Source: Hyphomicrobiales bacterium
GTDB taxonomy: Bacteria > Pseudomonadota > Alphaproteobacteria > Rhizobiales > Rhizobiaceae
Assembly (NCBI GenBank): GCA_003577315.1
Contig: QEVK01000004.1
Span: forward strand, 21,446 to 53,445
Length of the DNA stretch: 32,000 bases
Direction of reading: 5' to 3'
Shown here in pieces: positions 13,744-32,000 of the stretch. The position numbers and the translations under genes were made by a program. The notes below the pieces were generated by a model. That model was not told where the DNA came from. It worked only from the letters and a program-made list of their open reading frames with translations, and did no database searches. Within the stretch, counting starts at the first letter, position 1. Each line of letters starts with the position of its first letter.

Positions 13744-14322
13744 ATGCCGGAGAACGATGTCACCGGCCTGAAGAGCTTCGATGCCGTCTTCCGGCTCTTC
13801 GACCGCTTCACCGCCCTGATGAGCATCATCGGCACGCTCGCCATCCTGTTCATCATGTGCCTGATCACCGCCGACGTCGTCGGCCGCGCATTCCTCGGGC
13901 GCCCCATCCACGGCGTGCCCGAGATCGTGTCGATGCTGATCCTGAGCATCGTCTTCCTGCAGATCTCCAACACGCTCCTGCGCGGCAGGCTGACGCGCGC
14001 CGACGGCTTCCTGATGCTGGTGCGCGCGCGCTCGCCGCGGGCCGCCGGCGTGCTCGACGCCGTGATGCACCTGGCCGGCGTCGGCCTCGTCGGCGTTCTG
14101 GTGCACGCCTTCTACCCGCTGTTCCTGCGCAGCTGGGGCCGCAACGAGATGGTCGGCACCGTCGGGCAGTTCCTCGCCCCGATCTGGCCGACCTACCTGG
14201 TGGTGCTGGTCGGCTCGGCGGCGCTGTGCATCGCCTTTGCGCTGCGCGCCGCCGGCATCCTCATCGTCACCTTCTCGCCGGCCCCGGCCTCCTCCACGCG
14301 AGCGCGGGAGACGGCGCGATGA
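13744..14322 (+). CDS. TRAP transporter small permease (DctQ)
   Basis: The 192-aa ORF has four predicted TM segments (ALMSIIGTLAILFIMCLITADVVGRAFLGRPIHGVPEIVSMLILSIVFLQI...). It lies between the DctP and DctM genes, and its stop overlaps the DctM ATG as ATGA. Confidence 0.8.
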   Translation: MPENDVTGLKSFDAVFRLFDRFTALMSIIGTLAILFIMCLITADVVGRAFLGRPIHGVPEIVSMLILSIVFLQISNTLLRGRLTRADGFLMLVRARSPRAAGVLDAVMHLAGVGLVGVLVHAFYPLFLRSWGRNEMVGTVGQFLAPIWPTYLVVLVGSAALCIAFALRAAGILIVTFSPAPASSTRARETAR

Positions 14323-15635: not shown

Positions 15636-15647
15636 GAAAGGACCCCC

Positions 15648-16424: not shown

Positions 16425-16456
16425 GCTTCAACGACCGACCAGGAGGACGAGGCGCC

Positions 16457-17395
16457 ATGGCCCGCAAAATGGACAAGATCATCATCACCTGCGCCGTGAC
16501 GGGCGGGGTGCATACGCCCACCATGTCGGACGCGCTGCCGGTGACGCCGGACGAGATCGCCAGCCAGTCGATCGAGGCCGCCGAGGCCGGCGCCTCGATC
16601 ATCCACCTGCACGCCCGCGACCCGCAGACCGGCCGGCCGACGCCGGACCCGGCGGTGTTCATGCAGTTCCTGCCGCGCATCAAGCAGGCGACCGACGCGG
16701 TGGTCAACATCACCACCGGCGGCGGCCTCGGCATGACGGTCGAGGAGCGGCTGGCGGCCGCGCTCGCCGCCGAGCCGGAGATGTGCTCGCTCAACATGGG
16801 CTCGATGAACTTCGCGCTCCACCCGATGGCCGGCAAGTACAAGGAGTGGAAGCACGACTGGGAGAAGCCGTTCCTGGAGGCCAGCGACGACTTCATCTTC
16901 CGCAACACCTTCCGCGACATCGCCCGCATCATCAAGCAGCTCGGCGACGGCTGCGGCACGAAGTTCGAGCACGAGTGCTACGACATCGGCCACCTCTACA
17001 ACCTCGCCCACTTCGTCGACGCCGGGCTGGTGAAGCCGCCCTTCCTGGTGCAGTCGATCTTCGGCATCCTCGGCGGCATCGGCGCGGAGATGGAGAACAT
17101 CATGTTCATGAAGCAGACGGCGGACCGGCTGTTCGGCGACGACTACGTCTGGTCGGTGCTGGCGGCCGGGCGCTACCAGATGCCGTTCGTGACCCAGGCG
17201 GCGATGCTGGGCGGCAACGTCCGCGTCGGGCTGGAGGATTCGCTCAACATCGGCAAGGGCAAGCTCGCCAGCTCCAACGCCGAGCAGGTGCGCAAGGTGC
17301 GGCGCATCCTCGAGGAGCTGGGCTACGAGATCGCCAGCCCCGCCGAGGCGCGCTCCGTGCTCGGCCTCAAGGGCGGCGACATGGTCAAGTTCTAG
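16457..17395 (+). CDS. BKACE-family beta-keto acid cleavage enzyme (DUF849; 3-keto-5-aminohexanoate cleavage enzyme-like)
   Basis: This is the C-terminal 312 aa of the 14237-17395 ORF, starting MARKMDKIIITCAVTGG. It shows IIHLHARDP (Zn His pair), VNITTGGG, NMGSMNF and NVRVGLEDS. Confidence 0.85.
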   Translation: MARKMDKIIITCAVTGGVHTPTMSDALPVTPDEIASQSIEAAEAGASIIHLHARDPQTGRPTPDPAVFMQFLPRIKQATDAVVNITTGGGLGMTVEERLAAALAAEPEMCSLNMGSMNFALHPMAGKYKEWKHDWEKPFLEASDDFIFRNTFRDIARIIKQLGDGCGTKFEHECYDIGHLYNLAHFVDAGLVKPPFLVQSIFGILGGIGAEMENIMFMKQTADRLFGDDYVWSVLAAGRYQMPFVTQAAMLGGNVRVGLEDSLNIGKGKLASSNAEQVRKVRRILEELGYEIASPAEARSVLGLKGGDMVKF

Positions 17396-17409
17396 GACGG
17401 GGCGCGAGG

Positions 17410-18423
17410 ATGCCGGCAAATCCCATCGACGGCTTCGAGGTCGATCCGGCCTCGATCCGCACCGTCGGCCGCGACCTGCAGCGGCCGGAATGCATCCTGG
17501 CCGAGCGCGACGGCTCGCTGTGGGCGGCCGACGCCCGCGGCGGGGTCGTCCACATCGCCCCGGACGGGTCGCAGCGCATCGTCACCCAGACGAGCGGCGC
17601 GGCCTTCGCCAACGCCACCGACGACGCCAGGCGCTTCACCGAGGGCACGCTGCCCAACGGGCTGGCCTTCGCCCGCAACGGCGACATCCTGATCTCCAAT
17701 TTCGGCACCGACCGGCTGGAGGTCATGAAGCGCACCGGCGAGACCGAGGTGCTTCACGACCGCATCGACGGAAGGCCCATCGGCAAGGTCAACTTCGTGC
17801 TGCGCGACAGCAGGGATCGCGTGTGGCTGACGGTGTCCACCACCATCCCGAACTGGATGCAGGCCATCAGCCCCGCCATCCGCGACGGCTTCGTGGCGGT
17901 CGCCGACGACAAGGGCCTGCGCATCGTCGCCGACGGCTTCCACTTCACCAACGAGATCAGGCTCGACGCGAAGGAGGAGTGGCTCTACGTCGTCGAGACC
18001 TGCGGCATGAGGGTGACGCGGCTGCGCGTCGGCGAGGACGGCTCGCTGTCGCAGCGCGAGACCTTCGGCCCCGAAAGCCACGGCGCCTTCATCGACGGCA
18101 TCGCCTTCGACGCCTTCGGCAACCTGTGGGGCACGCATGTGATGACGGACCGCATCTTCGCCATCACGCCGGACGGCGACCTGCGCATCCTGCTCGACGA
18201 CGACAGGGGCTCGCAGGCGGGCAAGGCGCTGATCGAGGCGTTCCACGCCGACCGCGCCACGCCGGAGCTGATGCTGACCTGCGGCGGCGCCATCGCGCCG
18301 TGGATGGCGAGCGTGACCTTCGGCGGGCCGGACCTGCGCAACCTCTATATCGGCAGCCTGCGCGGCACGACGATCCCCTGGTTCCGCGCGCCGGTGGCGG
18401 GCCTGCCGATGGCGCACTGGTAG
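17410..18423 (+). CDS. SMP-30/gluconolactonase/LRE-like beta-propeller protein (putative lactonase/hydrolase)
   Basis: This is 337 aa taken from the 16783-18423 ORF, starting MPANPIDGFEV. It shows PECILAERDGSLWAAD, PNGLAFARNGDILISNFG, TNEIRLDAKEEWLYVVET, DGIAFDAFGNLWGT and LYIGSL. Confidence 0.75.
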   Translation: MPANPIDGFEVDPASIRTVGRDLQRPECILAERDGSLWAADARGGVVHIAPDGSQRIVTQTSGAAFANATDDARRFTEGTLPNGLAFARNGDILISNFGTDRLEVMKRTGETEVLHDRIDGRPIGKVNFVLRDSRDRVWLTVSTTIPNWMQAISPAIRDGFVAVADDKGLRIVADGFHFTNEIRLDAKEEWLYVVETCGMRVTRLRVGEDGSLSQRETFGPESHGAFIDGIAFDAFGNLWGTHVMTDRIFAITPDGDLRILLDDDRGSQAGKALIEAFHADRATPELMLTCGGAIAPWMASVTFGGPDLRNLYIGSLRGTTIPWFRAPVAGLPMAHW

Positions 18424-18442: not shown

Positions 18443-18964
18443 TCATGCGCTGCGGCCCGGGTCGCGGGAGAACAGCGCCGCCGCCAGCGCCTCCGGCACG
18501 TCGCCTGCCCCGGCATGGCGCAGAAAGGCCGCGAGATTGGCCCGCGCCAGCTCCTGCGCGGGCCGGCGCGCAGGCTCCAGCGTTCCGGCCCAGCGATGCA
18601 GCATGGCCTGCTCGACCTGCTCGGCCTCCAGCTCGCGCCGCTTGATCTCCTCGCGCAGCCTCGCGCAACCCTCCTCCTCCATGAAAGGCTGCCGCTTCAT
18701 CCAGCTGCGGGCGGCGCGCAGCGGCAGGATGACGTTCTCGCGCCACGCCCCGATCAGGGCGTCGGCCCGCCCGATCGCCGGGCCGTCGGCCTCCACGCCG
18801 CGCTCGGCCCCCGCCCATAGCCAGAACATCAGCAGGTTCACGTCCACGCCATGGGCGTCCTGGAGCGCCAGGCAGGCCGGCGCCACGCCGGGCACCGCAT
18901 ATGTGCGAAGGCTGAAGCGCCACAGCGGATTGTGAAGGTCGAGCGCGTCCGCACGGTCGCTCAT
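18443..18964 (-). CDS. Conserved hypothetical protein, DUF2390/TIGR02444-like
   Basis: The 173-aa ORF begins MSDRADALDLHNPLWRFSLRTYAVPGVAPACLALQDAHGVDVNLLMFWLWAG. The N-terminal pattern matches my recollection of DUF2390 proteins. Coding looks real (ATG start, normal composition), but the family name is unverified. Confidence 0.5.
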   Translation of the reverse strand: MSDRADALDLHNPLWRFSLRTYAVPGVAPACLALQDAHGVDVNLLMFWLWAGAERGVEADGPAIGRADALIGAWRENVILPLRAARSWMKRQPFMEEEGCARLREEIKRRELEAEQVEQAMLHRWAGTLEPARRPAQELARANLAAFLRHAGAGDVPEALAAALFSRDPGRSA

Positions 18965-19061
18965 GCGCCGGCTCCGTTCCTCGCCGCGGCAGCGGCGGCC
19001 TCATATCGCGGCGGGCAGCCTCCGCCGCAGGCCGATGAATCCATTGCGCTTTCCCGAATCG

Positions 19062-19168: not shown

Positions 19169-20530
19169 ATGAGTGACTTCGATCTTGTTGTAACCGGCAG
19201 GGTGGTTTGCACAAGCCGGGTGATCGAAAGGGGCTTCGTTGCCGTTCGCGACGGAAAGGTCGTGATGGTCGGCGCCGGCGAGGGGCCGGCCGCGCGCGAC
19301 AGGCAGGATTTCGGCCCGGCCTATGTGCTGCCGGGCGCGATCGACGGGCAGGTGCATTCGCGCTCGCAGAAGGATGTCGAGGGGTTCGCCTGGTCGACGC
19401 GCGCGGCGGCGGCCGGCGGCGTCACCACCGTCGTCGACATGCCCTACGACGACGGCACCCTGATCTGCGACCGCGAGAGCTTCGAGGCCAAGAAGGAGAG
19501 CGCCGGCGAGGAGGCGCGGGTCGATTTCGCGCTCTACGCCACCATCCGCCCGTCCGAGGGCGCGGCGCGCATTGCCGAGCTCGCCGCGGCCGGCGCCAGC
19601 GCGTTCAAGTTCTCCACCTTCGACACGCATCCCGACCGCTTCCCCCGCATTCCCACGCCGCTGCTCTACGAGGCCTTCTGCGCCATCGCGCCGACCGGGC
19701 TCATGGGCGGCGTGCACAACGAGAACGACGAATGCGTGCGCCATTTCTCCGAAAAGGTGCGCGCGGCCGGGCTGGGCGACTATCGCGCCCACGGCATGAG
19801 CCGCCCGCCCGTGACCGAGACGCTGGCGATCGCCGAGGTCTACGAGATCGCGGCGGCCACGGGCTGCCCGGCGCACATCGTCCACTGCTCCGTCGGGCAC
19901 GGCTACGAGATGGCTGCCGCGTATCGGCAGCAGGGCGTGGACGCCACCGTCGAGGCCTGCATCCACTATCTCGTCCTCAGCGAGGAGGACGACGTGGCGC
20001 GCCTGGGCGGCAAGGCCAAGATCAACCCGCCGGTGCGCGTGCGCGCCGAGCGCGAGGCGCTGTGGAGCCATCTCGCCGCCGGCAACGTCACCATCGTCTC
20101 CACCGATCACGTGAGCTGGTCGGAGGACCGCAAGACCGACCCGGACATGCTGAAGAACGCCTCCGGCGTTCCGGGGCTCGAGGTCCTCTACACCCTGCTC
20201 GTCGACGGGCTCCTGGCGCGCGGCCTGCCGCTCACCCATGCGGCGCGGCTGCTGGCGGCGAACCCGGCCCGGCTGTTCCGTATGAGCCATGTCAAGGGCG
20301 CGCTGGAGCCGGGCTGCGATGCGGATATCGTCGTTCTCGGCCATCGTCCCTGCCGCTACGATGCCCGGGCCAGCGGGCACAACTTCGCCGGCTGGAGCCC
20401 CTACGAGGGCATGGAGCTGACGTGGCGGCCGGTCGCCACCTTCGTGCGCGGCCAACTCGTCTTCGACGGCCGCGACGTGCTGGCGCAACCCGGCGACGGC
20501 CGCTTCGTGCGGCCGCCCGAGCTGACGTGA
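19169..20530 (+). CDS. Cyclic amidohydrolase (allantoinase/hydantoinase/dihydroorotase-like) with a variant QxH first metal motif
   Basis: The 453-aa ORF has the beta-1 motif PGAIDGQVHS where HxH is expected. The remaining ligand positions are kept: GASAFKFS (carbamylated Lys position), GGVHNEN, AHIVHCS and IVSTDHVSW. Confidence 0.85.
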   Translation: MSDFDLVVTGRVVCTSRVIERGFVAVRDGKVVMVGAGEGPAARDRQDFGPAYVLPGAIDGQVHSRSQKDVEGFAWSTRAAAAGGVTTVVDMPYDDGTLICDRESFEAKKESAGEEARVDFALYATIRPSEGAARIAELAAAGASAFKFSTFDTHPDRFPRIPTPLLYEAFCAIAPTGLMGGVHNENDECVRHFSEKVRAAGLGDYRAHGMSRPPVTETLAIAEVYEIAAATGCPAHIVHCSVGHGYEMAAAYRQQGVDATVEACIHYLVLSEEDDVARLGGKAKINPPVRVRAEREALWSHLAAGNVTIVSTDHVSWSEDRKTDPDMLKNASGVPGLEVLYTLLVDGLLARGLPLTHAARLLAANPARLFRMSHVKGALEPGCDADIVVLGHRPCRYDARASGHNFAGWSPYEGMELTWRPVATFVRGQLVFDGRDVLAQPGDGRFVRPPELT

Positions 20531-20538
20531 GGACGAGG

Positions 20539-21852
20539 ATGCAGCGCGAAGCCGGCACCGCCCCGGTCCATCCCTCCAACCTGCCGGTCGACGGCGGGCG
20601 CATGTGGAGCGACCTGACGGCGCTGGCCTCCATCACCGAGCCGGACCGCCCGTGGACCCGCCGTTCGTTCACGCCGCGCTTCCTCGAAGGGCGCGCCTGG
20701 CTCGAGCGGCGGTTCCGGGAGGCGGGGCTTTCGACGCGCCTCGACGCGGCGGGCAACCTGATCGGCCGCCGCGAGGGGCGGGTTCCCGGCGCGCCGGCGA
20801 TCATGCTCGGCTCGCATTCCGACACCGTCCCCTCGGGCGGCCGCTTCGACGGCGTCGCCGGGGTGATCGCGGCGCTCGAGGTCGCCCGCGCGCTCGCGGC
20901 GGCCGGCACGGAGCTCGACCACCCGCTGGAGATCGTCGACTTCCTCGCCGAGGAGCCGAGCGAATACGGGCTTTCCTGCGTCGGCAGCCGGGGCATGGCC
21001 GGGGCGCTGGACGGCGGGCTGCTGGAGCTGACCGGGCCGGGCGGCGAGCGGCTCGACGCGGCCATCGACCGCGTCGGCGGCAACGTCGCCGCCCTGGCGC
21101 AGGCGCGGCGCGACGACGTCGCCGCCTTCCTCGAGCTGCACATCGAGCAGGGGCCCGTGCTTGAGGCGACCGGCACGGATGTCGGCATCGTCACCGCCAT
21201 CGTCGGCATCACGCGCCTCGAGATCGTCTTTTCCGGCCAGGCCGGCCATTCCGGCACGACGCCGATGGACCGCAGGCAGGACGCCGGCGTCGCCGGCGCG
21301 CGCGCGATGGTGTGGCTGCGCGACGAGGCGCGCGCGCTCGCCGCGGCCGGCGACGGCTATTTCGTCGCCACGGTCGGCATCGCCGAGGTCAGGCCCGGCG
21401 GCGCCAACGTGGTGCCGGGCGAGATGCGGCTCGTCGTCGACCTGCGCGGCGAGCGGCGCGGGACGATGGAGGATTTCCTGGCGCGGCTCGGCGCGGAAAT
21501 GGCGCGGATCGCCGGGGAGGAGGGCGCGCGCGTGTCGGTGGCGACCCTCTCCGACAGCCTGCCAGCCCATTGCGACGCGACGCTGCGCGCGGCGCTGGCG
21601 GCGAGCGCGCGCAGCCTCGGCGTCTCGTCGCTCGACATGGCCTCCGGCGCCGGTCACGACGCGGCGTTCCTCAGCCGCATCGCGCCCGCGGCGATGGTGT
21701 TCATCCCCTGCCGCGAGGGCAGGAGCCACTGTCCCGAGGAATGGACCGAGCCGGGTCAGCTTGCGGTCGGCGCCAGCGTCCTGCTTGAAGCGGTGCGCGC
21801 GCTCGACGCCCGTCTTTCCCGGCGGGACGCGCCAGGCGGAGAGGAAGCATGA
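20539..21852 (+). CDS. M20-family N-carbamoyl-L-amino-acid / ureido-acid amidohydrolase (AmaB/HyuC/AllC-like)
   Basis: This is 437 aa taken from the 19207-21852 ORF. It shows RRSFTPRFLEGRAWLERRFREAGL, DAAGNLIGRREG, IMLGSHSDTVPSGGRFDGVAGV, FLAEEPSEYG, ELHIEQGPVLE and SGAGHDA. The start could alternatively be the downstream Met of GGRMWSDL. Confidence 0.85.
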   Translation: MQREAGTAPVHPSNLPVDGGRMWSDLTALASITEPDRPWTRRSFTPRFLEGRAWLERRFREAGLSTRLDAAGNLIGRREGRVPGAPAIMLGSHSDTVPSGGRFDGVAGVIAALEVARALAAAGTELDHPLEIVDFLAEEPSEYGLSCVGSRGMAGALDGGLLELTGPGGERLDAAIDRVGGNVAALAQARRDDVAAFLELHIEQGPVLEATGTDVGIVTAIVGITRLEIVFSGQAGHSGTTPMDRRQDAGVAGARAMVWLRDEARALAAAGDGYFVATVGIAEVRPGGANVVPGEMRLVVDLRGERRGTMEDFLARLGAEMARIAGEEGARVSVATLSDSLPAHCDATLRAALAASARSLGVSSLDMASGAGHDAAFLSRIAPAAMVFIPCREGRSHCPEEWTEPGQLAVGASVLLEAVRALDARLSRRDAPGGEEA

Positions 21853-23261
21853 AGGAGGGGCAGGACATGGCGGGCACGGCGCCGTCGCGAAAGGACGAAT
21901 GGACATTCCGGGCCTATCTCGCCGAGCTCGACCGCCGCGGCGAGCTGGCCACCGTCGCCGCGCCGGTGCATGAGGACCCGTTCGGCATCTCCGCCTGCCT
22001 CTCGGCGCTGCATCAGGGGCCGGCCCTGCACTTCACCCATCCCGGCCCGACCGGCCTCACCGTCGCCGGCAACCTGCTCAACTCCATCGACAGGGTGGGG
22101 CTCGGGCTCCGGCTCGACCGCGGCGCGCTGCCGGCGGCGATCGCCTCGGCCATCGGCCGGCCGCTCAGGCCGCGCGAGGTGGCGCGGGGCGCATGCCAGG
22201 AGGTGGAGATGGAGCCGGATCTCGGCCTGCTCCCCATCCCGCGCTTCTTCGAGCACGAGACCGGCCCCTACATCACCGCCGGCTGCATCGTGGCCCGCGA
22301 CAGCCGCACCGGCCTCGGCAACCTGTCCTATGCGCGGCTGAAGCCGCTCGGCCCCGACCGCGCGCTCGTCGGCATCGCGCCCAACCACCACCTGGCGGTG
22401 ATGGCGCGGGCCGCAGCCGCGCGCGGCGAGCGCCTGCCCATCGCCGTCACCGTCGGCAACCATCCCGTCGTCCTGGTGGCGGCCGCCCTCTACCTCAAGC
22501 TGGGCGAGGACGAGATGGAGGTCGCAGGCGCGCTGCAGGGCGCGCCGGTGGGCGTCGTGCGCTGCCGCACGAGCGACCTGCTGGTGCCGGCCGATTGCGA
22601 GGTGGTGATCGAGGGCGAGATCGAGGTCGGCGAGACCGTGGAGGAAGGCCCGGTCAGCGAGTATCACGGCATGTACGAGCGCTACGGCGCCGGCCACGTC
22701 GTCAGGATCACGGCGATCACCCGCCGCCGCGACGCCATCTTCCAGGTCATCGAGCCGGGCTTCCACATCGAGCACCTTTTGATCGGCGGCGTCGCCATCG
22801 CCGCCGGGCTCGAGCAGCACCTCAAGGGCTTCGTCCCCGCGGTGGAGCGCGTCTCCGTGCTCGACAGCGGCTGCGGCCGGCTGTCGGCGGTGGTGGTGCT
22901 TGGGCCGGACCGCAAGCCCGGCGACCCCGTCAAGGCGATCATGGGCGCGCTGTCGGCCGTCAACCTCATCAAGCAGGTCACGGTGGTCGACAACGACATC
23001 GACCCCTGGGACGAGTTCCAGGTGCAGTACGCCGTCGCCACCCGCATGCGCGCCGATCGCGACATCGTCGTCGTGCCCGGGGCGCGCACCGACCGCTCCG
23101 AGCCGATGAAGCTCGGCGGCACCATCGCCAAATACGGCTTCGACGCCACCAGGCACGCCGAGGATCGCGACGACTGGACGCCGGCCCGCGCGCCGGCGGA
23201 CGCCTACCGGGACGCGGCGCCGATCATCGACGCCATACGCGCCGGCAAGCGCAGGATCTGA
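21849..23261 (+). CDS. UbiD-family (prFMN-dependent) decarboxylase/carboxylase homologue
   Basis: The 470-aa ORF shows LAELDRRGELATV, GPYITAGCIVARDSRTGLGNLSYAR, PNHHLAV, GEDEMEVAGAL, EEGPVSEYHGMY and VTVVDNDIDPWD. The ATG at 21849 overlaps the upstream stop as ATGA. The alternative ATG at 21867 has a stronger SD (AGGAGG, 8-nt spacer). Confidence 0.85.
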   Translation: MKEGQDMAGTAPSRKDEWTFRAYLAELDRRGELATVAAPVHEDPFGISACLSALHQGPALHFTHPGPTGLTVAGNLLNSIDRVGLGLRLDRGALPAAIASAIGRPLRPREVARGACQEVEMEPDLGLLPIPRFFEHETGPYITAGCIVARDSRTGLGNLSYARLKPLGPDRALVGIAPNHHLAVMARAAAARGERLPIAVTVGNHPVVLVAAALYLKLGEDEMEVAGALQGAPVGVVRCRTSDLLVPADCEVVIEGEIEVGETVEEGPVSEYHGMYERYGAGHVVRITAITRRRDAIFQVIEPGFHIEHLLIGGVAIAAGLEQHLKGFVPAVERVSVLDSGCGRLSAVVVLGPDRKPGDPVKAIMGALSAVNLIKQVTVVDNDIDPWDEFQVQYAVATRMRADRDIVVVPGARTDRSEPMKLGGTIAKYGFDATRHAEDRDDWTPARAPADAYRDAAPIIDAIRAGKRRI

Positions 23262-23273
23262 CGAGGGAGCGAC

Positions 23274-24371
23274 ATGAGACGAATTCTGACAGCGAGCGAT
23301 GTCGAGGCCGCGGTGAAGGGCGGCGCGGTGTTCGCGGCGGGCGGCGGCGGCTGGGCCGATCACGGCCGCATGCTCGGCACCGCCGCCGTCAACGCCGGCA
23401 CGCCCGAGCTCGTCAGCATGGACGAGGTGCCGGACGACGCCTGGATCGCCACCGCCGCCGCCATCGGCGCTCCCGCCGGGACGACGCAGTGGCAGATGCT
23501 GGGCGTCGACTACGTCAAGGCGGTCGAATTGCTTCAGCAGGAGCTGGGCGAGCCGGTCTACGGCCTCATCATCGGCCAGAACGGCAAGTCGAGCACGCTC
23601 AACGCCTGGCTTCCCTCGGCGATCCTGGGCACGCGGGTCATCGACGCCGTCGGCGACATCCGCGCCCATCCCACCGGCGACATGGGCTCGCTCGGCCTCG
23701 CCAACAGCCCGGAACCGACGATCCAGACCGCGGTCGGCGGCAACCGCGCCAACGATTCCTACATCGAGCTGGTGATCCGCGGCGCCACAGCGAAGGTCTC
23801 GCCGGTGCTGCGCAAGGCCTCCGACATGTCCGGCGGCTTCATCGCCTCCTGCCGCAACCCGGTCCGCGCCTCCTATGTGCGCGAGCACGCCGCGCTCGGC
23901 GGCATCTCGATGGCGCTGGAGCTCGGCGCGCGCATCATCGCGGCGGAGCCGAAGGGCGGCCGCGCCGTCATCGACGCGATCTGCGACAGCCTCAAGGGCT
24001 CGATCGTCGCCTCGGGGCCGGTCGCGAGCAAGGCGGTGGCCTATACGCAGGAGGCCTTCGACATCGGCACCGTCACCGTCGGCCAGGGCGGCGGCGCCTG
24101 CACGCTGCACGTCATGAACGAGTACATGGCCGTCGACGGCGCCGGCGGCGAGCGCCTCGCCACCTATCCCGACGTCATCACGACGCTCGACGACGACGGC
24201 GTGCCGGTCAGCGTCGGCGAGGTGCGCGAGGGCATGCGCTTGCACGTCCTGCACGTTCCGCGCCACGTCATTCCGCTTTCGTCGAGCGTCAGGGATCCCA
24301 GTGTCTACCCGGTGGTGGAAAAGGCGCTTGGAATCGACATCGCGAGTCACGTTCTGGGGGTGAAGGCATGA
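23274..24371 (+). CDS. DUF917-family protein (PF06032-type; hydantoinase-associated family)
   Basis: The 365-aa ORF begins MRRILTASDVEAAVKGGAVFAAGGGGWADHGRMLG...PDDAWIATAAAIGAP. The N-terminal GGGG motif and overall length match my recollection of DUF917. Its stop overlaps the next ATG as ATGA. Confidence 0.65.
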   Translation: MRRILTASDVEAAVKGGAVFAAGGGGWADHGRMLGTAAVNAGTPELVSMDEVPDDAWIATAAAIGAPAGTTQWQMLGVDYVKAVELLQQELGEPVYGLIIGQNGKSSTLNAWLPSAILGTRVIDAVGDIRAHPTGDMGSLGLANSPEPTIQTAVGGNRANDSYIELVIRGATAKVSPVLRKASDMSGGFIASCRNPVRASYVREHAALGGISMALELGARIIAAEPKGGRAVIDAICDSLKGSIVASGPVASKAVAYTQEAFDIGTVTVGQGGGACTLHVMNEYMAVDGAGGERLATYPDVITTLDDDGVPVSVGEVREGMRLHVLHVPRHVIPLSSSVRDPSVYPVVEKALGIDIASHVLGVKA

Positions 24372-26023
24372 GCAAGGTCTTTTCGGTGACGGGAGGCACG
24401 GCGCTGCGCTGCAAGGGCTGGCGGCAGGAGGGCCTGCTGCGGCTTCTGGAGAACGTTCTCGCCGTCGGCGAGAACCCGTCGGAGCTGATCGTCTACGCCG
24501 CGCTCGGCAAGGCCGCCCGGGACTGGGCCTCGCACGACCGCATCGTCGAGACGCTCAGGACGATGGAGGAGGACGAGACGCTGATCGTCCAGTCCGGCAA
24601 GCCGATCGGCCTGATGAAGACCCATGCCGCCGCCCCCGTCGTCGTCATGGCCAACTGCAACATGGTCGGCCAGTGGGCGAAGGCCGAGAACTTCTACGAC
24701 TGGGAGAAGCGCGGCCTGATCTGCTGGGGCGGGCTGACCGCGGGCGACTGGCAGTATATCGGCTCGCAGGGCGTCATCCAGGGCACCTACGAGATCTTCA
24801 TGCGCATCGCCGAGCGCCATTTCGGCGGCAGCCTCTCCGGCCGCTTCGTCCTGACGGCGGGGCTCGGCGGCATGGGCGGCGCGCAGCCGCTGGCCGGCCG
24901 GCTGGCCGGCGCCGCCATCCTGTGCGTCGAGATCGACGAGGCGCGCATCCGCAAGCGGCTCGACATCGGCTTCCTCGACGCGGTCGCCCCCGACCTCGAC
25001 GCCGCGCTCGCCATGATCCGCGAGGCGCAGGCCGCGGGCCGGGCGCTGTCGGTGGGGCTTTGCGCCAACGCCGCCGACGTCTATCCCGAGATCGTGGCGC
25101 GCGGCATCGTGCCGGACGTCGTCACCGACCAGACCTCGGCGCACGATCTCCTCTACGGCTACATCCCCGCCGGCTACACGCTCGACCAGGTGCGCGCGAT
25201 GCGCGGCAGCGACCCCCAGGCGCTGATGGCGGCGAGCCGCGGCTCCATCGTGCGCCATGTCGGCGCCATGCTCGCCATGCGCAGGGCCGGCGCCGTGGCC
25301 TTCGACAACGGCAACCTCATCCGCACGCAGGCGAAGGAAGGCGGCGTCGCCGACGCCTTCGACATCCCGATCTTCACCGAGGCGTTCCTGCGGCCGCTCT
25401 TCGCCCGCGCCATCGGCCCGTTCCGCTGGATCGCGCTGTCCAACGACCCGGCCGACATCGCCGCGATCGACGATTTCATCCTCGAGCGCTTCCCCGACAA
25501 CCGCATCGTCACCAACTGGATCGGGCTGGCGCGCAAGCACGTCCCCTTCGAGGGGTTGCCGGCCCGCATCGCCTGGCTCGGGCATGGCGAGCGCACCGAG
25601 CTCGGCCTCGCCGTCAACCGCATGGTGCGCGAGGGCAGGCTCGCCGGCCCGGTCGCCTTCACCCGCGACCATCTCGACGCCGGCGCGATGGCGCATCCCA
25701 ACATCATGACCGAGCGCATGCGCGACGGGTCGGACGCCATCGCCGACTGGCCGTTGCTCAACGCCATGCTCAACTGCTCGTCGCAGGCGGACCTCGTGGC
25801 GATCCATTCCGGCGGCGGCGGCTATTCCGGCTACATGACGAGCGCCGGCGTCACGCTGGTGGCCGACGGCAGCGAGGCCGCCGACCGGCGGCTGCGGCTC
25901 ACGCTCGACAACGACACCGCGCTCGGCGTCATGCGCTACGCCGATGCCGGCTACGAGGAATCCTTCGAGGAGGTCGAGGCCAAGGGCCTCGGCTATTTCG
26001 ATCTTCGCCCGGCCAGGGGCTGA
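24368..26023 (+). CDS. Urocanate hydratase (HutU) family paralogue, divergent
   Basis: This is 551 aa taken from the 22193-26023 ORF. It shows LIVQSGKPIG, YIGSQGVIQGTYE, the NAD site TAGLGGMGGAQPLA, VTDQTSAHD, GPFRWIAL, GLPARIAWLG, RDHLDAG and MRDGSDAIADWPLLNA. Several canonical urocanase positions differ (see findings). Confidence 0.88.
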   Translation: MSKVFSVTGGTALRCKGWRQEGLLRLLENVLAVGENPSELIVYAALGKAARDWASHDRIVETLRTMEEDETLIVQSGKPIGLMKTHAAAPVVVMANCNMVGQWAKAENFYDWEKRGLICWGGLTAGDWQYIGSQGVIQGTYEIFMRIAERHFGGSLSGRFVLTAGLGGMGGAQPLAGRLAGAAILCVEIDEARIRKRLDIGFLDAVAPDLDAALAMIREAQAAGRALSVGLCANAADVYPEIVARGIVPDVVTDQTSAHDLLYGYIPAGYTLDQVRAMRGSDPQALMAASRGSIVRHVGAMLAMRRAGAVAFDNGNLIRTQAKEGGVADAFDIPIFTEAFLRPLFARAIGPFRWIALSNDPADIAAIDDFILERFPDNRIVTNWIGLARKHVPFEGLPARIAWLGHGERTELGLAVNRMVREGRLAGPVAFTRDHLDAGAMAHPNIMTERMRDGSDAIADWPLLNAMLNCSSQADLVAIHSGGGGYSGYMTSAGVTLVADGSEAADRRLRLTLDNDTALGVMRYADAGYEESFEEVEAKGLGYFDLRPARG

Positions 26024-26094
26024 AGCGGCGGCCGGGCGGGAGACCGCGGCCGCGCAGACCGTGAAATGAACAGGAAACAAGAGGGAACAGGCAA

Positions 26095-27129
26095 ATGAAC
26101 GTTTCAAGACTGCTTATCGCCGCGGCGACGACACTGTCGATCTCCGCATTCTCGTTCGCCGCGACCGCGCAGGAGAAGGTCACCTTGCGGGTGCACTCCT
26201 TCTCGAGCCCCGTCGCGCCCGAGGCCGTCCACATGGTCCTGCCCTTCATCGAGAAGGTGCGCGAGGAGTCCGGCGGCCGTCTCGAGCTGGAATTCTACCC
26301 GGGCATGCAGCTCGGCGGCCGCGCCAGCGACCTGATCCAGCAGCTCGAGGACGGCGTGGTCGATTTCGTGGTGACGATCCCCGGCGTGACGCCCGGCCGC
26401 TTCGCCGGCCTCGAGGGCATGGACATGCCCTTCACCAATGTCGGCACCTCGGCCGGCCAGACCGCGTCGCTGCTGGCCTTCGCCGACAAGTGGCTGCTGG
26501 ACAACGAGTTCGAGGGCATCAAGATCATCCACATGCACGCCACGGACGCCGGCGTGCTCCACACCACCAGGAAGAAGATCGACAACGCCGCCGCCATGCA
26601 GGGCCTGCGCATCCGCGCGCCGGGCCGCTATGTCGGCGAGGCCATCACCCTTCTCGGCGGCACCCCGGTCGGCCTCGCCCTCGGCGAGGTCTACGAGGCG
26701 CTGGAGCGCGGCCAGATCGACGGCATGGCCATCAACTGGGCGATCATGCCGTCCTACAAGTTCGAGGAGGTCACGAAGTTCAGCCTCGAGACGCCGCTCT
26801 ACCAGACGCCGATCATGGTGCTGATGCGCCAGGAATCCTACGACAACCTGCCGGACGACCTGAAGGCGGTGATCGACAACAACATCGGCATCGAGAAGTC
26901 GGTCGAGGTGGCGAAGAAGATCGACGAGCTGACGGTGCAGGCCAAGCAGGTGGTGAAGGACGCCGGCAACGAGATCTACGCGCTCGACGACGCCGAAAGG
27001 ACGCGCTGGATCGAGACCGCCACGCCGGTCTACAAGATCTGGATCGACGAGATGAACTCCAGGGGCCTGCCGGGTCAGGAGATGTTCGACGACATCCTCG
27101 CCATCACGGCCGCCAACGGCCGCGAATAG
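26095..27129 (+). CDS. TRAP transporter substrate-binding protein (DctP family), Arg-containing carboxylate type
   Basis: The 344-aa ORF has signal peptide MNVSRLLIAAATTLSISAFSFAATAQ. Its core MQGLRIRAPGRYVGEAITLLGGTPVGLALGEVYEALERGQIDG retains the KIR/RIR arginine. Confidence 0.85.
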   Translation: MNVSRLLIAAATTLSISAFSFAATAQEKVTLRVHSFSSPVAPEAVHMVLPFIEKVREESGGRLELEFYPGMQLGGRASDLIQQLEDGVVDFVVTIPGVTPGRFAGLEGMDMPFTNVGTSAGQTASLLAFADKWLLDNEFEGIKIIHMHATDAGVLHTTRKKIDNAAAMQGLRIRAPGRYVGEAITLLGGTPVGLALGEVYEALERGQIDGMAINWAIMPSYKFEEVTKFSLETPLYQTPIMVLMRQESYDNLPDDLKAVIDNNIGIEKSVEVAKKIDELTVQAKQVVKDAGNEIYALDDAERTRWIETATPVYKIWIDEMNSRGLPGQEMFDDILAITAANGRE

Positions 27130-27148
27130 GCAGGAAGCGGGCACTGCG

Positions 27149-27682
27149 ATGCGAGAAACCCGTCACGGGCGCCTGAAGCGCCTCCTGCTGCTCCCCTGCA
27201 AGGGAGCAGCCCTGTTCGGCGGCGTCTTCATGATCGCCGGCGTGCTCGTGGTCGTCGCGAGCGTCATGGGCGGCATCCTCGGCAAGCCGCTCCTGGGCGA
27301 TTCCGAGATCGTCGACAGGTTCATCGGGATCGCGATCTTCTGCTTCCTGCCCTACTGCCATCTGATGGGCGGGAACATCGTCATCGACTTCTTCGCCAAG
27401 CCGTTCCCGCAGGCCGTCCAGGACGGGCTGGACGTCGTCATGAACCTGCTGTTCGCCGCGCTCGCCGCCTTCATCTCGTGGCGGCTCATGGCGGGCGGCA
27501 TCACCACCTTCGAGCGCGGCCGCCAGAGCATGTTCCTGCAACTGCCGGAGTGGCCCGTCTATCTGGTCGCAAGCATCGTCACCGTCCTTTGGGTGCTCGT
27601 CATCCTCTTCGCGGCCTACGAGGCGTTCCTGCGCATGACCGGGAAGCTCGAGGCCGCGCGCGGGAGCACGGATTTCGGATAG
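27149..27682 (+). CDS. TRAP transporter small permease (DctQ)
   Basis: The 177-aa ORF has four TM segments and lies between DctP and DctM. The exact start is uncertain, because an internal Met at MIAGVLVV is also possible. Confidence 0.75.
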   Translation: MRETRHGRLKRLLLLPCKGAALFGGVFMIAGVLVVVASVMGGILGKPLLGDSEIVDRFIGIAIFCFLPYCHLMGGNIVIDFFAKPFPQAVQDGLDVVMNLLFAALAAFISWRLMAGGITTFERGRQSMFLQLPEWPVYLVASIVTVLWVLVILFAAYEAFLRMTGKLEAARGSTDFG

Positions 27683-27735
27683 GCGCGGGCGCCTCGCGTC
27701 CCGCACGCTCCTCGAAACGATTGGGGAAACAGAGA

Positions 27736-29052
27736 ATGGACAGGATCGAGATCGGCCTGTTGATGTTTGCGGCGTCGCTGGTGCTGATCGCGCTCAGGAT
27801 GACGGTCGCCGGCGCGATGCTGCTCGTGGGCGGGCTCGGCTATGCGGCGATCGTCGGCTGGTCGCCGCTGCTCAGCACCATGAAGACGATGACGTACTCG
27901 AAATTCTCGAGCTACTCGTTGTCGGTGCTGCCCTTCTTCCTGCTGATGGGAGAATTCGCGACCAAGGGCGGCATGAACAGCCGCCTGTTCCGCGCCGCGC
28001 GCGCATGGCTGGGCCACTGGCGCGGCGGCCTCGCCATGGCCACCATCGGCGGCTGCGCCTCCTTCGGCGCGGTCTGCGGCTCGTCCATCGCCACGGCCGC
28101 CACCATGTCGCAGGTGGCGCTGCCGGAGATGCGCAAGCTGGGCTATTCGCCGGCGCTCTCGACCGGAACGCTGGCGGCCGGCGGCACGCTCGGCATCCTC
28201 ATCCCGCCGTCGATCATCCTCGTCATCTACGCCATCTACACCGAGCAGTCGGTGGGGGCGCTGTTCGCGGCGGCGATCGTGCCGGGCATCATCGCCATCG
28301 TGCAGTACATGCTCGTCGTGGCGCTCTACAGCCGCTTCGTCAAGGGCGCGGCGCCGCGGCTGGAGAAGGCGAGCTGGCGCGAGCGCATCGAGGCGACGCT
28401 GGAGATCTGGCCGATCGGCATCGTCTTCGTGCTCATCGTCGCCGGCATCTATCGCGGCTGGTTCTCGCCCACCGAGGCGGCGGCCATCGGCGCCTTCGCC
28501 ACCCTGGTGCTCGCCGTCGTCCAGGGCGGCATGCGCTGGAAGGGCTTCATCGAGGCGGTGCTCTCGGCCGGCTCGCTGTCGGCGATGATGTTCCTCATCA
28601 TGCTGTCGGCCGAGCTCTTCGCCGCCGCGCTGGCGCTGTCCCAGCTTCCCAGCGAAATCTCGAAATGGGTGGTCGGCCTCGATTTCGGGCCCTACACGAT
28701 CCTGTTCTGCATCATCGTGATCTACCTGGTCCTGGGATGCTTCATGGAATCGCTGGCGATGGTGCTGCTGACGCTGCCGGTCTTCGTGCCGGTGATGCTG
28801 TCGCTCGATTTCGGCGTGCCGAGCAACGCGGTGCTGGTGTGGTTCGGCATACTGGTGCTGATGAGCGTCGAGATCGGCATGATAACGCCGCCCTTCGGCC
28901 TCAACCTGATCGTCATCAACTCGCTGGCCAAGGACATCCCGATGAAGGAGACCTATGTCGGCGTGCTGGGCTTCGTCGGCATGGACATCGTGCGCGTGAT
29001 GGCGGTGCTGTTCTTCCCCATACTTCCGCTGTGGCTGCCGGGCCTGATGTAG
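27736..29052 (+). CDS. TRAP transporter large permease (DctM)
   Basis: This is 438 aa taken from the 27478-29052 ORF, starting MDRIEIGLLMFAASLVLIAL. It shows LPFFLLMGEF, GGCASFGAVCGSSIATAATM and MITPPFGLNLIV. It is the same length as the DctM at 14319. Confidence 0.9.
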   Translation: MDRIEIGLLMFAASLVLIALRMTVAGAMLLVGGLGYAAIVGWSPLLSTMKTMTYSKFSSYSLSVLPFFLLMGEFATKGGMNSRLFRAARAWLGHWRGGLAMATIGGCASFGAVCGSSIATAATMSQVALPEMRKLGYSPALSTGTLAAGGTLGILIPPSIILVIYAIYTEQSVGALFAAAIVPGIIAIVQYMLVVALYSRFVKGAAPRLEKASWRERIEATLEIWPIGIVFVLIVAGIYRGWFSPTEAAAIGAFATLVLAVVQGGMRWKGFIEAVLSAGSLSAMMFLIMLSAELFAAALALSQLPSEISKWVVGLDFGPYTILFCIIVIYLVLGCFMESLAMVLLTLPVFVPVMLSLDFGVPSNAVLVWFGILVLMSVEIGMITPPFGLNLIVINSLAKDIPMKETYVGVLGFVGMDIVRVMAVLFFPILPLWLPGLM

Positions 29053-29074: not shown

Positions 29075-29113
29075 CGCCCCCCGCTTCAGGCCTGCGCCCT
29101 GAGGCGGGGGGCG
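29075..29113. terminator. GC-rich hairpin at the convergent dctM / lysR junction (possible bidirectional terminator)
   Basis: CGCCCCCCGCTTCAGG (29075-29090), loop CCTGCGC, then CCTGAGGCGGGGGGCG (29098-29113). The 16-bp arms have one mismatch and no U-tract on either strand. The hairpin overlaps the last codons of the LysR gene. Confidence 0.4.
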
Positions 29114-30015
29114 AGCCTGTCCGCCTCGCACACTTCCCGCAGCGAATCGAGGAACTCGCCGGCCCGCTTCGTGAAGGGGTGGCGCTCGCGCGTGTGGGCA
29201 TAGATGCCGAAGCGCAGCGGCGGGTCGATCGGCCGCACCGAAACGGCCAGATAGGGCGCGGCGGCGGTGAACTCGTCGACGACGGCGCAGCCCGTCCCCG
29301 CCGCCACGATGTTGCGGGCGATGTAGTAGGTCTGGACCTGGACCGGCGGCGAGAAGGCGAGCCCGCTCTCCTCCATGGCGGCCTTGAGCTGCAGGCCCAG
29401 ATAGTGGGTGTCGTTGAGCCCGATCAGCCGCTTCGCGTCGATCTTCGCCAGCTTCATCGGCATGCCGTTCAGCGAGGGGCTCCTGCCGGGCGTGTCGATA
29501 TAGACCATCTCGCCGGTCGAGATCAGCTTCGAGACGATGCCCGGCGTCTCGCCGCCATATCCCTCGCTCGGCCCGAAGGAGAGGCCGACGTCGAACTCGC
29601 GGCCGAGCAGGCCGTCCATCATCTCCCGCTCGTGCCGCGTGGCGACCTCGATGAAGGTGCGCGGGCGCCGGCTGCGGAACAGGTGGATCGCGCGCGGCAC
29701 CACGCCCATGCCGAGGCTCGGCAGGCAGGCGATGCGCAGATGTATCTCCAGGCCCTCGCGCAGCACCGTCGCCGTATGGCGGGTGCGCTCGAGCGCCTCG
29801 TAGACGCGCTCTATGTCGAGGAAGAGCGTTTCGGCCTCGTCCGTCGCCAGGAGCCTGCCGCGCAGCCGGCGGAAGAGCTGGAAGCCCAGCTGCTGCTCGG
29901 CGTGCTTCAGGATCTTGCTGACCGCCGGCTGGGTGATCGAAAGGGCGGCGGCGGCGGCGCTGGTCGAGCCCGTGCGCCGGACGGCATGAAGAACTTCGAT
30001 ATGCCGCAAACGCAT
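29086..30015 (-). CDS. LysR-family transcriptional regulator
   Basis: This is 309 aa taken from the 29086-31413 ORF, starting MRLRHIEVLHAVRRTGSTSAAAAALSITQPAVSKILKHAEQQLGFQLFRR (LysR HTH), followed by a substrate-binding domain. The ATG is the complement of 30013-30015. Confidence 0.88.
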   Translation of the reverse strand: MRLRHIEVLHAVRRTGSTSAAAAALSITQPAVSKILKHAEQQLGFQLFRRLRGRLLATDEAETLFLDIERVYEALERTRHTATVLREGLEIHLRIACLPSLGMGVVPRAIHLFRSRRPRTFIEVATRHEREMMDGLLGREFDVGLSFGPSEGYGGETPGIVSKLISTGEMVYIDTPGRSPSLNGMPMKLAKIDAKRLIGLNDTHYLGLQLKAAMEESGLAFSPPVQVQTYYIARNIVAAGTGCAVVDEFTAAAPYLAVSVRPIDPPLRFGIYAHTRERHPFTKRAGEFLDSLREVCEADRLAPRLRAQA

Positions 30016-30195: not shown

Positions 30196-31392
30196 ATGAC
30201 CGCATCCGCGCGCGCGCCGCTCGACGGCGTCGTCGTCCTCGATTTCAGCCGCGTCCTGGCCGGCCCGTTCTGCTCGGCCCTGCTGGCGGATCTCGGGGCG
30301 GACGTCATCAAGGTCGAGCCGCCGCAGGGCGACGACCAGCGCTGGATGGGCGCGTTCAGGGACGGCATCAGCGTCAGCTTCGAGCTGATCAACCGCAGCA
30401 AGCGCTCGATCCGCCTCGACCTGAAGACCGAGGAGGGGCGAAAGATCGCCCTGGCGCTGGCCGGGCGCGCCGACGTGGTGATCGAGAACTTCCGCCCCGG
30501 CGTCGCCGAGCGCCTCGGCATCGGCTACGAGGCGCTGAAGGCGCGCAGGCCCGACATCGTCTACTGCTCGATCTCCGGCTTCGGCCAGGCGGGCCCGATG
30601 GCGCAGTTTCCCAGCTACGACGTCGTCGCGCAGGCGCTGTCGGGGATGATGAGCATCACCGGCATGCCCGACGGCGAGCCGGTGCTGGTCGGCGATTCGA
30701 TCGGCGACACGGTCTCCGGCCTCTACTGCGCGCTCGGCATAGCGCTCGCCCTGTTCCGCCGGGCGTCCACGGGCGGGGGCGCGCATATCGACATCGCCAT
30801 GTTCGACGCCCTGTTCAGCCTGCTGCCGACGGCGCTGGCCTCCTGGCAGGTGACGGGCGAGGCGCCGGGCAGGGCCGGCAACCAGCACCCGCTGTCGGCG
30901 CCCTTCGGGGCCTTCGCCGCCCGCGACGGCCTGTTCATGCTGGCGATCGCCAACAAGGCGCTGTTTTCCCGCTTCGCCGGGCTGATCGGCCGGCCGGAAC
31001 TCGCCGCCGACCCCCGGTTCGACAGCGACCCGGCGCGCCGGACCAACCGGGCGGCGCTTCGCGAAATCATCGAGGAATGGGCGCGCGACAGGAGCGCGGC
31101 CGCCGTGGTCGCGCTGCTCGGCGAGGCCGGCATTCCCGCCTCGACGATCTGGAACGTCGCCGAGGCGGCGGCGAGCGACCATGCGGCGAGCCGCAAGCTG
31201 ATGAGCGAGGTCGAGCATCCGCGTCTCGGCCGCCTGCGCCTGCCGGAGCAGCCGCTGCATTTCGCCGGTCTGGGGCGCGGCGCGGTCCGGCGCGCGCCCG
31301 ATCTCGGCGCCGACGGGGCCGACATACTCGGCCGCCTGCTCGGCATGGAGCCGGACGAGGTGCGCCGCCTCGTCGAGAGCGGCGCAATCTGA
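30196..31392 (+). CDS. Family III CoA-transferase (CaiB/BaiF/Frc type)
   Basis: The 398-aa ORF shows PLDGVVVLDFSRVLAGPFCSALLADLGADVIKVEPP, ENFRPGV, GFGQAGP and YDVVAQALSGMMSITG. RBS GGGAGGG lies upstream. Confidence 0.88.
   Translation: MTASARAPLDGVVVLDFSRVLAGPFCSALLADLGADVIKVEPPQGDDQRWMGAFRDGISVSFELINRSKRSIRLDLKTEEGRKIALALAGRADVVIENFRPGVAERLGIGYEALKARRPDIVYCSISGFGQAGPMAQFPSYDVVAQALSGMMSITGMPDGEPVLVGDSIGDTVSGLYCALGIALALFRRASTGGGAHIDIAMFDALFSLLPTALASWQVTGEAPGRAGNQHPLSAPFGAFAARDGLFMLAIANKALFSRFAGLIGRPELAADPRFDSDPARRTNRAALREIIEEWARDRSAAAVVALLGEAGIPASTIWNVAEAAASDHAASRKLMSEVEHPRLGRLRLPEQPLHFAGLGRGAVRRAPDLGADGADILGRLLGMEPDEVRRLVESGAI

Positions 31393-31427: not shown

Positions 31428-32000
<573 letters not shown>

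Follow-up and report, generated by a model that had tools for sequence, protein, structure and literature searches.

An antioxidant of the thiol-histidine type, ergothioneine is common in the diet and in the environment. Its breakdown by bacteria has reportedly been reconstituted only recently, as a pathway of five enzymes, and the five catabolic steps, ErtA-E, are said to be those of Muramatsu et al. and of Beliaeva, Leisinger and Seebeck 2021. The described pathway includes a lyase, and it contains neither a decarboxylase nor any enzyme dependent on prenylated flavin mononucleotide (prFMN). Here we analyzed a stretch of 32,000 nucleotides from a Hyphomicrobiales bacterium (assembly GCA_003577315.1, contig QEVK01000004.1, positions 21,446 to 53,445; henceforth the window), in which four genes that match enzymes of this pathway at the equivalog level flank a gene, at 21849-23261 of the window, for a predicted prFMN-type enzyme of the UbiD family. 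This UbiD protein very likely adds an extra step or a branch, so far undescribed, to ergothioneine breakdown. Both the kind of enzyme and the ert pathway are known; what is new, to the extent of our searches, is their conserved association, together with the signature of the family, its dedicated UbiX and DUF2390 neighbors, and the variants that lack ErtB and ErtC.

On the side of the enzyme, the best match in both sequence and fold is HmfF/HmfG (Pelotomaculum thermopropionicum, 6H6V/6H6X; Cupriavidus basilensis HMF14), which has the same three-domain layout. The open reading frame (ORF) in the window gives a stop-free translation of 470 amino acids with matches to UbiD_N (PF20695, E 7e-8), UbiD (PF01977, 9e-57) and UbiD_C (PF20696, 4e-21), all above the gathering scores, and the model TIGR00148 'UbiD family decarboxylase' scores it at 263.6 bits (cut-off 244.85). 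With these three domains and above-threshold hidden Markov model scores the protein is a member of the UbiD family. Its AlphaFold2 model (pLDDT 81, pTM 0.82, built with 19 homologues) finds HmfF as its best Foldseek match in the PDB (E 1e-36, TM 0.78-0.85), the remaining solved UbiD structures matching at TM ~0.7, all with probability 1.00. Among the solved relatives HmfF is also the best match by sequence (E 3e-59), with 36% identity between our protein and HmfF of P. thermopropionicum (PtHmfF).

The catalytic and cofactor motifs, which the initial annotation had called intact, are indeed so. GNLSYAR (N158, R163), PNHHLAV (H180/H181), GEDEMEVAG (D221/E222) and EEGPVSEYHGMY (E266, E271) all line up in HMMER alignments with their equivalents in PtHmfF (6h6v) and Escherichia coli UbiD (5m1c). 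N158, H180/H181 and D221/E222, the presumed ligands of the metal and the prFMN phosphate, match the corresponding motif residues of these two proteins, and HmfF has the same Asn/His/Glu and Glu-Arg-Glu positions. The Glu-Arg-Glu network is likewise kept, with R163 five residues past N158 and E266-G-P-V-S-E271 aligned to EGPFGE in PtHmfF and EGPYGD in E. coli UbiD. Our residue-level comparison was made with these two enzymes; in AnFdc1 we take the metal and prFMN ligands to be N168/H191/E233 and the catalytic network to be E277/R173/E282. N158, R163, H180/H181, D221/E222, E266 and E271 are unchanged in 81 of 81 family members, and the idea of a degenerate or pseudo-UbiD was dropped, every catalytic column being invariant. 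Judged from these alignments, the protein is apparently a catalytically competent prFMN decarboxylase scaffold.

Genes were called from the ORF list together with a frame plot of G+C at third codon positions (GC3); the window has 70% G+C. By this approach a row of same-strand genes spans 19169 to 29052, and a scan of the operon for promoters and terminators gave no signal above shuffled background. The operon reads as the known ert catabolic set minus the lyase plus UbiD, because four neighbors of the UbiD gene exceed the NCBIfam equivalog cut-offs for ErtD, ErtE, thiohydantoin desulfurase and thiourocanate hydratase (Table 1). The earlier label of a ureide/urocanase operon thus gives way to that of an ert cluster. 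UbiD itself is none of the five described ert enzymes, as no NCBIfam ert model matched it whereas the four neighbors were matched. As the initial annotation had pointed out, the first UbiD ATG (21849-21851) overlaps the TGA of the upstream ertE (21850-21852) in an ATGA, and a second in-frame ATG at 21867 stands behind AAGGAGG (21852-21858) with a spacer of 8 nucleotides. The ATG at 21867, with its Shine-Dalgarno sequence, is likely the true start, because alignments of homologues to the UbiD protein begin only from residue 5-19 onward. ErtE and UbiD are predicted to be translationally coupled whichever start is used, and the same 4-bp overlap of the two genes is found in a metagenome-assembled genome (MAG) of the Burkholderiaceae (L006). 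The start of ErtB also overlaps the stop of ErtC in an ATGA, and ErtE itself starts at 20539 or 20602.

The linkage of UbiD with ert genes is conserved. We compared 80 UbiD loci from 80 species-representative genomes, scored by tblastn with the proteins of the window within a radius of 10 kb, and found at least one ert-type gene in 56 of them and all four in 40. These neighbors form thiourocanate sets (in the window and, with a hydratase of 1006 bits, at L024), S-methyl-thiourocanate sets (at L046, with an S-methyl hydratase of 959 bits and an S-methyl desulfurase of 545 bits) or hydantoinase/carbamoylase variants. The synteny spans alpha- and betaproteobacteria as well as Verrucomicrobiota and comes in several gene orders; the adjacency of UbiD and DUF917 that had been noticed in the window recurs, dozens of genomes having UbiD beside DUF917/ert genes. 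As a background figure, within the class as a whole thiourocanate hydratase was above its cut-off in only 3 of 301 sampled genomes and the UbiD family present in two, both among these three carriers, an even sample of 300 genomes being too sparse for a useful phylogenetic profile.

A UbiD enzyme of the HmfF kind needs a UbiX partner. The window holds no UbiX gene, as had been stated, but the absence does not extend to the genome: the only UbiX gene identified in it lies on the same contig at C32:57132-57695(+) (NF004685, 260 bits against a cut-off of 188; TIGR00421, 239 bits), 3.7 kb past the end of the window and ~12.4 kb downstream of the UbiD stop. The genome, which is 94% complete, has two PF02441 hits, of which this one is a clear UbiX and the other is on contig C2; a second UbiD, on contig C18, is of the ubiquinone type (best match NF008175). 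Of the 80 species genomes, 19 have UbiX at a distance of at most 10 kb from the UbiD gene. Divergent from UbiX in our genome is a fused double-LysR regulator of ~620 amino acids (C32:55129-57144(-)), and the pair would occupy about 33684-36250 in window coordinates. At 25 further loci, in clusters of the Bradyrhizobium type, it is the UbiD gene from which an orthologue of this regulator diverges, and the fused protein probably regulates the prFMN part of the UbiD system. The DUF2390 gene that is divergent from ertD in the window is, in 8 of the 10 other loci that carry DUF2390, directly beside or divergent from UbiX (DUF2390 loci include L005:6775-7245, L023, L025, L037, L038 and L074). Its AlphaFold2 model (pLDDT 89) is all-helical, and Foldseek found no PDB match for it (best E 3.7). 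We regard the DUF2390 protein as a candidate helper of the prFMN system, a maturase or a chaperone.

The UbiD proteins are set apart from HmfF by both sequence and surroundings. The alignment of 81 members, which covers all clades, has 64 invariant columns. All catalytic and cofactor positions are among these, and ~20 of the invariant positions differ from PtHmfF, for instance F133, E137, A162, N179, N204, Y215, S270, H273, E277, Y279, Q299 and I317. In PtHmfF, H296, R304 and R331 are, we assume, the residues proposed to hold the distal carboxylate; His296 and Arg331 are retained here as His309 and Arg344, whereas Ile317 takes the position of Arg304 in 81 of 81 members. The gene is not in an hmf cluster (HmfABCDE, HmfH) but next to ert genes, a tripartite ATP-independent periplasmic (TRAP) transporter, a LysR regulator and a coenzyme A (CoA)-transferase, and no furoyl-CoA or hydroxymethylfurfural oxidase genes were seen among the UbiD neighbors. 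We read these sequences as a distinct family with its own single substrate type rather than as HmfF orthologues. A homology search gave hundreds of UbiD homologues at 55-82% identity, for which the sources offer only the names 'UbiD family', 'furandicarboxylate decarboxylase 1' and 'polyprenyl-hydroxybenzoate decarboxylase'. The JGI tags of many members, '2,5-furandicarboxylate decarboxylase 1' or '4-hydroxy-3-polyprenylbenzoate decarboxylase', are probably wrong in view of the ert context and of an identity to HmfF of 36%. The member from Cupriavidus basilensis was considered as a marker of a bona fide hmf cluster and rejected, since its neighborhood consists of LysR-UbiD-UbiX, a porin and an MFS transporter.

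Other described systems resemble parts of this one. UbiD relatives head an operon of the S-methyl type in genomes of the Bradyrhizobium type, which brings in the S-methyl-ergothioneine variant of the pathway. The bagremycin/ferroverdin set BagA/BagN/BagM (FevW/FevL/FevK) consists, in NCBIfam, of a tyrosine ammonia-lyase with UbiD and UbiX, and in this set as in engineered modules of histidine ammonia-lyase (HAL), Fdc and UbiX the lyase gene adjoins or co-clusters with UbiD, as it does in clusters of the present family. In the bagremycin/ferroverdin and engineered modules the lyase makes an aryl-acrylate that UbiD converts to a vinyl compound, and 4-vinylimidazole has been made in this manner in E. 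coli by HAL, Fdc and UbiX (PMC7225752). Those modules are, however, biosynthetic or engineered and use UbiDs of the Fdc or BagN type, the BagN model scoring our protein at 105 bits against a cut-off of 1000, whereas the present setting is catabolic and a vinyl product would have no evident fate in it. The pyrrole-2-carboxylate decarboxylase HudA/PA0254 is a UbiD enzyme that acts on a five-membered N-heteroaromatic acid; it also has trace decarboxylase activity on imidazole-4-carboxylate, and imidazole forms a covalent adduct with its prFMN (PMC7976604). HudA is a distant relative of our protein (E 2e-25), from the dimeric Fdc/HudA branch and with another genomic context.

The arrangement of the clusters, which we took from a maximum-likelihood tree and gene-cluster maps (ignoring antisense ORF artefacts, i.e. 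clusters c14 and c16 and the '_2' tree rows), varies between lineages. In type A (the window, Burkholderiaceae MAGs, Maritimibacter, Rhodoplanes) the order is ErtD-ErtE-UbiD-ErtC-ErtB-TRAP. Two continuations occur after TRAP, one with a HAL-type lyase, a GlcD-like FAD oxidase and a TyrB-like transaminase, the other with a CoA-transferase and two acyl-CoA dehydrogenases. Type A', in Alloyangia mangrovi (L005/L018) and Mangrovicoccus algicola (L015), is the same without ErtC and ErtB, and comprises ErtD, ErtE, UbiD, TRAP, a HAL with the methylidene-imidazolone (MIO) motif, a GlcD-like oxidase and a TyrB-like transaminase. The whole genomes of Alloyangia and Mangrovicoccus gave no thiourocanate hydratase or thiohydantoin desulfurase above cut-off, and their sole kind of urocanase is HutU-like, with 50% identity to ErtB. 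Type B, in ~30 Bradyrhizobium/Xanthobacteraceae genomes, has ErtD-ErtE with or without ErtC-ErtB, the double-LysR gene and a divergent UbiD, after which come a Liv-type ABC transporter, S-methyl-thiohydantoin desulfurase, GST, S-methyl-thiourocanate hydratase and OCD or UbiX. In clade 2, made up of betaproteobacterial MAGs, UbiD stands beside a true thiourocanate hydratase (1006 bits), with a TRZ/ATZ-like amidohydrolase opposite and CoA-transferase and enoyl-CoA hydratase genes nearby; ErtC was not found in the clade-2 genomes. Type C (Alphaproteobacteria, Verrucomicrobiota) combines a MIO-less lyase homologue that overlaps UbiD by 4 bp with an ErtD-like hydantoinase (552 bits, slightly below cut-off), a hydantoin racemase and a CN-hydrolase. 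In type D (marine Rhodospirillaceae and others) the lyase-UbiD pair stands alone amid glycolytic genes, and the orthologous hydantoinase-racemase-CN-hydrolase operon is elsewhere in the genome in 5 of 5 genomes tested. The 4-bp overlap of UbiD with a MIO-less lyase homologue occurs in two clades. The HAL-type lyase, which shares the cluster in type A genomes, is directly upstream of UbiD in L087.

The TRZ/ATZ-like amidohydrolase of 500 amino acids was considered as a universal substitute for ErtC and discarded. It is present in type D and clade-2 genomes, but in the searched type C and Alloyangia genomes it was not found at E <= 1e-40, and Mangrovicoccus has only a weak relative of 34% identity. 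A separate observation concerns loci L100:8547-14460, L101:1677-4477 and L102-L104, where UbiD shares 4 bp with the gene of a MIO-less lyase homologue. This lyase homologue is very divergent, with GAG in place of ASG and a best PDB match of E 1e-17. The carriers also have an operon for an ADP-forming acyl-CoA synthetase, a Rieske oxygenase, a short-chain dehydrogenase (SDR), a TRZ/ATZ-like amidohydrolase, an ErtD-like hydantoinase, a hydantoin racemase and a CN-hydrolase, and the set looks like an undescribed pathway variant.

What could the UbiD enzyme do in an ert cluster? We give about an even chance to the hypothesis that a family of prFMN-dependent UbiD enzymes has been recruited as a conserved accessory of ert and thio-imidazole catabolism and decarboxylates an acid of the thiourocanate type; from the observations above we infer the substrate class, the direction of the reaction and the physiological role. 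An imidazole-acid UbiD is the leading idea because of the synteny with lyase homologues, the hydroxycinnamate-type TRAP binding protein and the ert enzymes. According to this hypothesis UbiD would share a transcript, and be translationally coupled, with ErtD-ErtE on its upstream side and ErtC-ErtB-TRAP on its downstream side, and would be supplied by the UbiX of the genome 12 kb downstream. Its reaction would most likely be a non-oxidative decarboxylation. The substrate would be a member of the thiourocanate family, an imidazole-type acid that is alpha,beta-unsaturated or heteroaromatic, which could come from TRAP import or, in other genomes, from the neighboring aromatic-lyase homologue, and the step would open a side branch of, or a feeder line to, the canonical five-step pathway. 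On the side of import, closer PDB relatives of DctP include the TRAP DctP entries 7nr2, 7nsw and 7nrr (E 4e-51 to 5e-50), which we take to be proteins that bind lignin-derived aromatic acids. Both aromatic-lyase genes of the genome carry the MIO motif, and a MIO-less ergothionase was not found among them; a TRAP importer is in the cluster instead. Since the ergothionase is absent from the genome, and given the ligands presumed for the DctP relatives, the comparison suggests that uptake of a thiourocanate-like acid, i.e. an aryl-acrylate, fits, and that the betaine ergothioneine is a less likely import substrate.

This interpretation should be treated with some caution, as a number of points weigh against it. 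The canonical five-step pathway of Beliaeva, Leisinger and Seebeck 2021 is reportedly complete without a decarboxylase, and it is not obvious how ErtD and ErtE could carry a vinyl-imidazole-thione product on to glutamate. The nearest characterized relatives (HmfF, InD, UbiD, AroY, VdcC) use ring-bound carboxylates, not acrylates, and an actinobacterial clade of the family has the same pocket residues in non-ert contexts. Several UbiD contexts are not explained by a simple decarboxylation of thiourocanate. Where UbiD is kept with ErtD and ErtE in the lack of ErtB and ErtC (Alloyangia, Mangrovicoccus), or with ErtB in the lack of ErtC (the betaproteobacterial MAGs), its retention suggests that it may replace steps, and the type A', C, D and clade-2 contexts together suggest that UbiD is able to occupy the place of ErtB and/or ErtC. 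Moreover, no curated NCBIfam ert model covers the family, and the literature searched on UbiD with ergothioneine, thiourocanate or thiohydantoin and on urocanate decarboxylase does not describe the enzyme, in agreement with the initial annotation, which knew of no described hut, ert or hydantoin pathway with a UbiD activity of this kind.

The clusters without ErtB or ErtC bring up another use of the cofactor, in which prFMN would serve non-decarboxylative chemistry on a thio-imidazole and replace thiourocanate hydratase and/or thiohydantoin desulfurase, either by electrophilic covalent catalysis that hydrates the acrylate or by displacement of the sulfur at C2. In urocanase, NAD+ acts by electrophilic covalent catalysis. 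The ErtD-ErtE-UbiD-TRAP-HAL clusters of Alloyangia and Mangrovicoccus, in genomes with only the HutU-like urocanase and no above-cut-off desulfurase, would agree with such chemistry, and so would the pairing of UbiD with a true thiourocanate hydratase (1006 bits), and no desulfurase, in betaproteobacterial MAGs. In the type C order lyase-UbiD-hydantoinase-racemase-carbamoylase UbiD therefore sits in the place of ErtB and ErtC, and the prFMN adduct of HudA is formed covalently at C2 of the imidazole (PMC7976604). We nevertheless consider this reading unlikely. The window carries both ErtB and ErtC, so that a non-decarboxylative UbiD would be redundant there; the Glu-Arg-Glu network, which handles the carboxylate, is strictly conserved; and all characterized UbiD enzymes are, to our knowledge, (de)carboxylases. 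In addition, ErtB or ErtC could be hidden by the incompleteness of MAGs, and in clade 2 and type D the TRZ/ATZ-like amidohydrolase could itself substitute for the desulfurase. There is a similarly small chance that the enzyme performs a new prFMN reaction on 2-thio- or 2-oxo-imidazole acrylates (hydration, desulfurization or cis/trans isomerization, with no loss of the carboxylate), or a decarboxylative bypass to a different hydantoin. If true, such a reaction or bypass could replace thiourocanate hydratase and thiohydantoin desulfurase, and there would be a second, prFMN-based route for ergothioneine or thiohistidine with its dedicated UbiX, DUF2390 and fused double-LysR regulator.

It could also be hypothesized that the enzyme works like HmfF and decarboxylates a heteroaromatic acid with its carboxylate on the ring, such as 2-thioxoimidazole-4-carboxylate or imidazole-4-carboxylate, left after CoA-dependent shortening of the side chain of (thio)urocanate or imidazole-propionate, much as vanillate decarboxylase acts after cleavage of the ferulate side chain. 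The ring carboxylates used by the closest characterized relatives and the alignment of His309 and Arg344 with PtHmfF His296 and Arg331 favor such a substrate, but with Ile317 in place of Arg304 throughout the family, and ~20 more family-invariant positions that differ, the pocket departs from that of HmfF in its details. Part of the CoA chemistry would be at hand, as the TRAP genes are succeeded here by a CoA-transferase and one probable acyl-CoA dehydrogenase and in Burkholderiaceae clusters by a CoA-transferase and a pair of acyl-CoA dehydrogenases, and the clade-2 UbiD has CoA-transferase and enoyl-CoA hydratase genes near it. However, a hydratase/lyase or thiolase is not present in the cluster of the window, and the two-gene lyase-UbiD cassettes with their 4-bp overlap leave side-chain-shortening enzymes no room, which makes the ring acid an improbable substrate in our view. 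Still less credible, and very improbable, is that UbiD is a mere passenger that was inserted by chance in an ert operon and decarboxylates some unrelated aromatic or furan acid. The ert-type synteny, shared by 56 of 80 species of alpha- and betaproteobacteria and Verrucomicrobiota in differing gene orders, speaks against chance, as do the coupling to ErtE both here and in L006, the 36% identity to HmfF and the lack of hmf genes nearby; what such an insertion would account for is the furandicarboxylate label that JGI gives to many homologues, and the members from Cupriavidus basilensis and Actinomycetota whose non-ert contexts hold only UbiX, a regulator and a transporter.

Table 1. Features of the window around the UbiD gene, in window coordinates.
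Feature	Coordinates	Strand	Evidence
DUF2390 / TIGR02444 protein, divergent from ErtD	18443..19000	-	Pfam DUF2390 104 bits; TIGR02444 107 bits
ErtD, hydantoin-5-propionate amidohydrolase	19169..20530	+	NF058538 765.3 bits, cut-off 600
ErtE, N-carbamyl-L-glutamate amidohydrolase (M20)	20539..21852	+	NF058540 588.7 bits, cut-off 520
UbiD-family prFMN-type (de)carboxylase (predicted)	21849..23261	+	Pfam, TIGR00148, HMMER alignments, AlphaFold2/Foldseek, family alignment
ErtC, thiohydantoin desulfurase (DUF917 / S-Me-THD-like fold)	23274..24371	+	NF058529 604.3 bits, cut-off 440; Pfam S-Me-THD_N, S-Me-THD_C
ErtB, thiourocanate hydratase (urocanase family)	24368..26023	+	NF058530 1022.8 bits, cut-off 930; frame by GC3 plot
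TRAP transporter DctP 26095-27129, DctQ 27149-27682, DctM 27736-29052	26095..29052	+	Pfam DctP, DctQ, DctM
LysR-type regulator	29086..30012	-	Pfam HTH_1, LysR_substrate
Family III CoA-transferase	30196..31392	+	Pfam CoA_transf_3 416.6 bits
Probable acyl-CoA dehydrogenase, 5' part; gene runs to 32603	31428..32000	+	Contig translation, by position

Downstream of the TRAP genes the CoA-transferase holds the same position as in the related Burkholderiaceae clusters L006 and L011-L014. L006 has an acyl-CoA dehydrogenase pair there (PimC/PimD matches below the cut-offs), whose place is taken here by the gene at 31428. CoA-transferase and acyl-CoA dehydrogenase might re-oxidize a reduced side chain, from thio-imidazole-propionate to thiourocanate. 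Upstream and on the same strand, positions 12597-18423 hold genes for a further TRAP system and for a putative cyclase (PF04199), an SMP-30/gluconolactonase-like gene and a match to 3,5-dioxohexanoate:acetyl-CoA acetone transferase (BKACE family, 542 bits). These genes do not seem to be connected with the ert set. Elsewhere in the genome, contig C3:4720-8691 is HutH-HutU, and contig C1:46219-54795 carries a second MIO-type lyase with a third urocanase paralogue, which is 46% identical to ErtB and scores 623 bits on the thiourocanate model, below its cut-off. The lyase and urocanase paralogue of contig C1 may constitute another route for a modified urocanate.

The UbiD family has consequences for the biology of ergothioneine. 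A sixth enzyme that is strictly conserved and demanding in its cofactor, present in many of the proteobacterial forms of the pathway, suggests that the described pathway is incomplete, that it is branched or fed by an unrecognized substrate, or that there is a prFMN-based alternative to it. Hundreds of entries that are named 'furandicarboxylate decarboxylase' or 'polyprenyl-hydroxybenzoate decarboxylase' are probably misnamed. With a known operon and culturable carriers the case is cleanly testable, and, if the hypothesis is true, an imidazole or thio-imidazole acid would join the short list of natural UbiD substrates.

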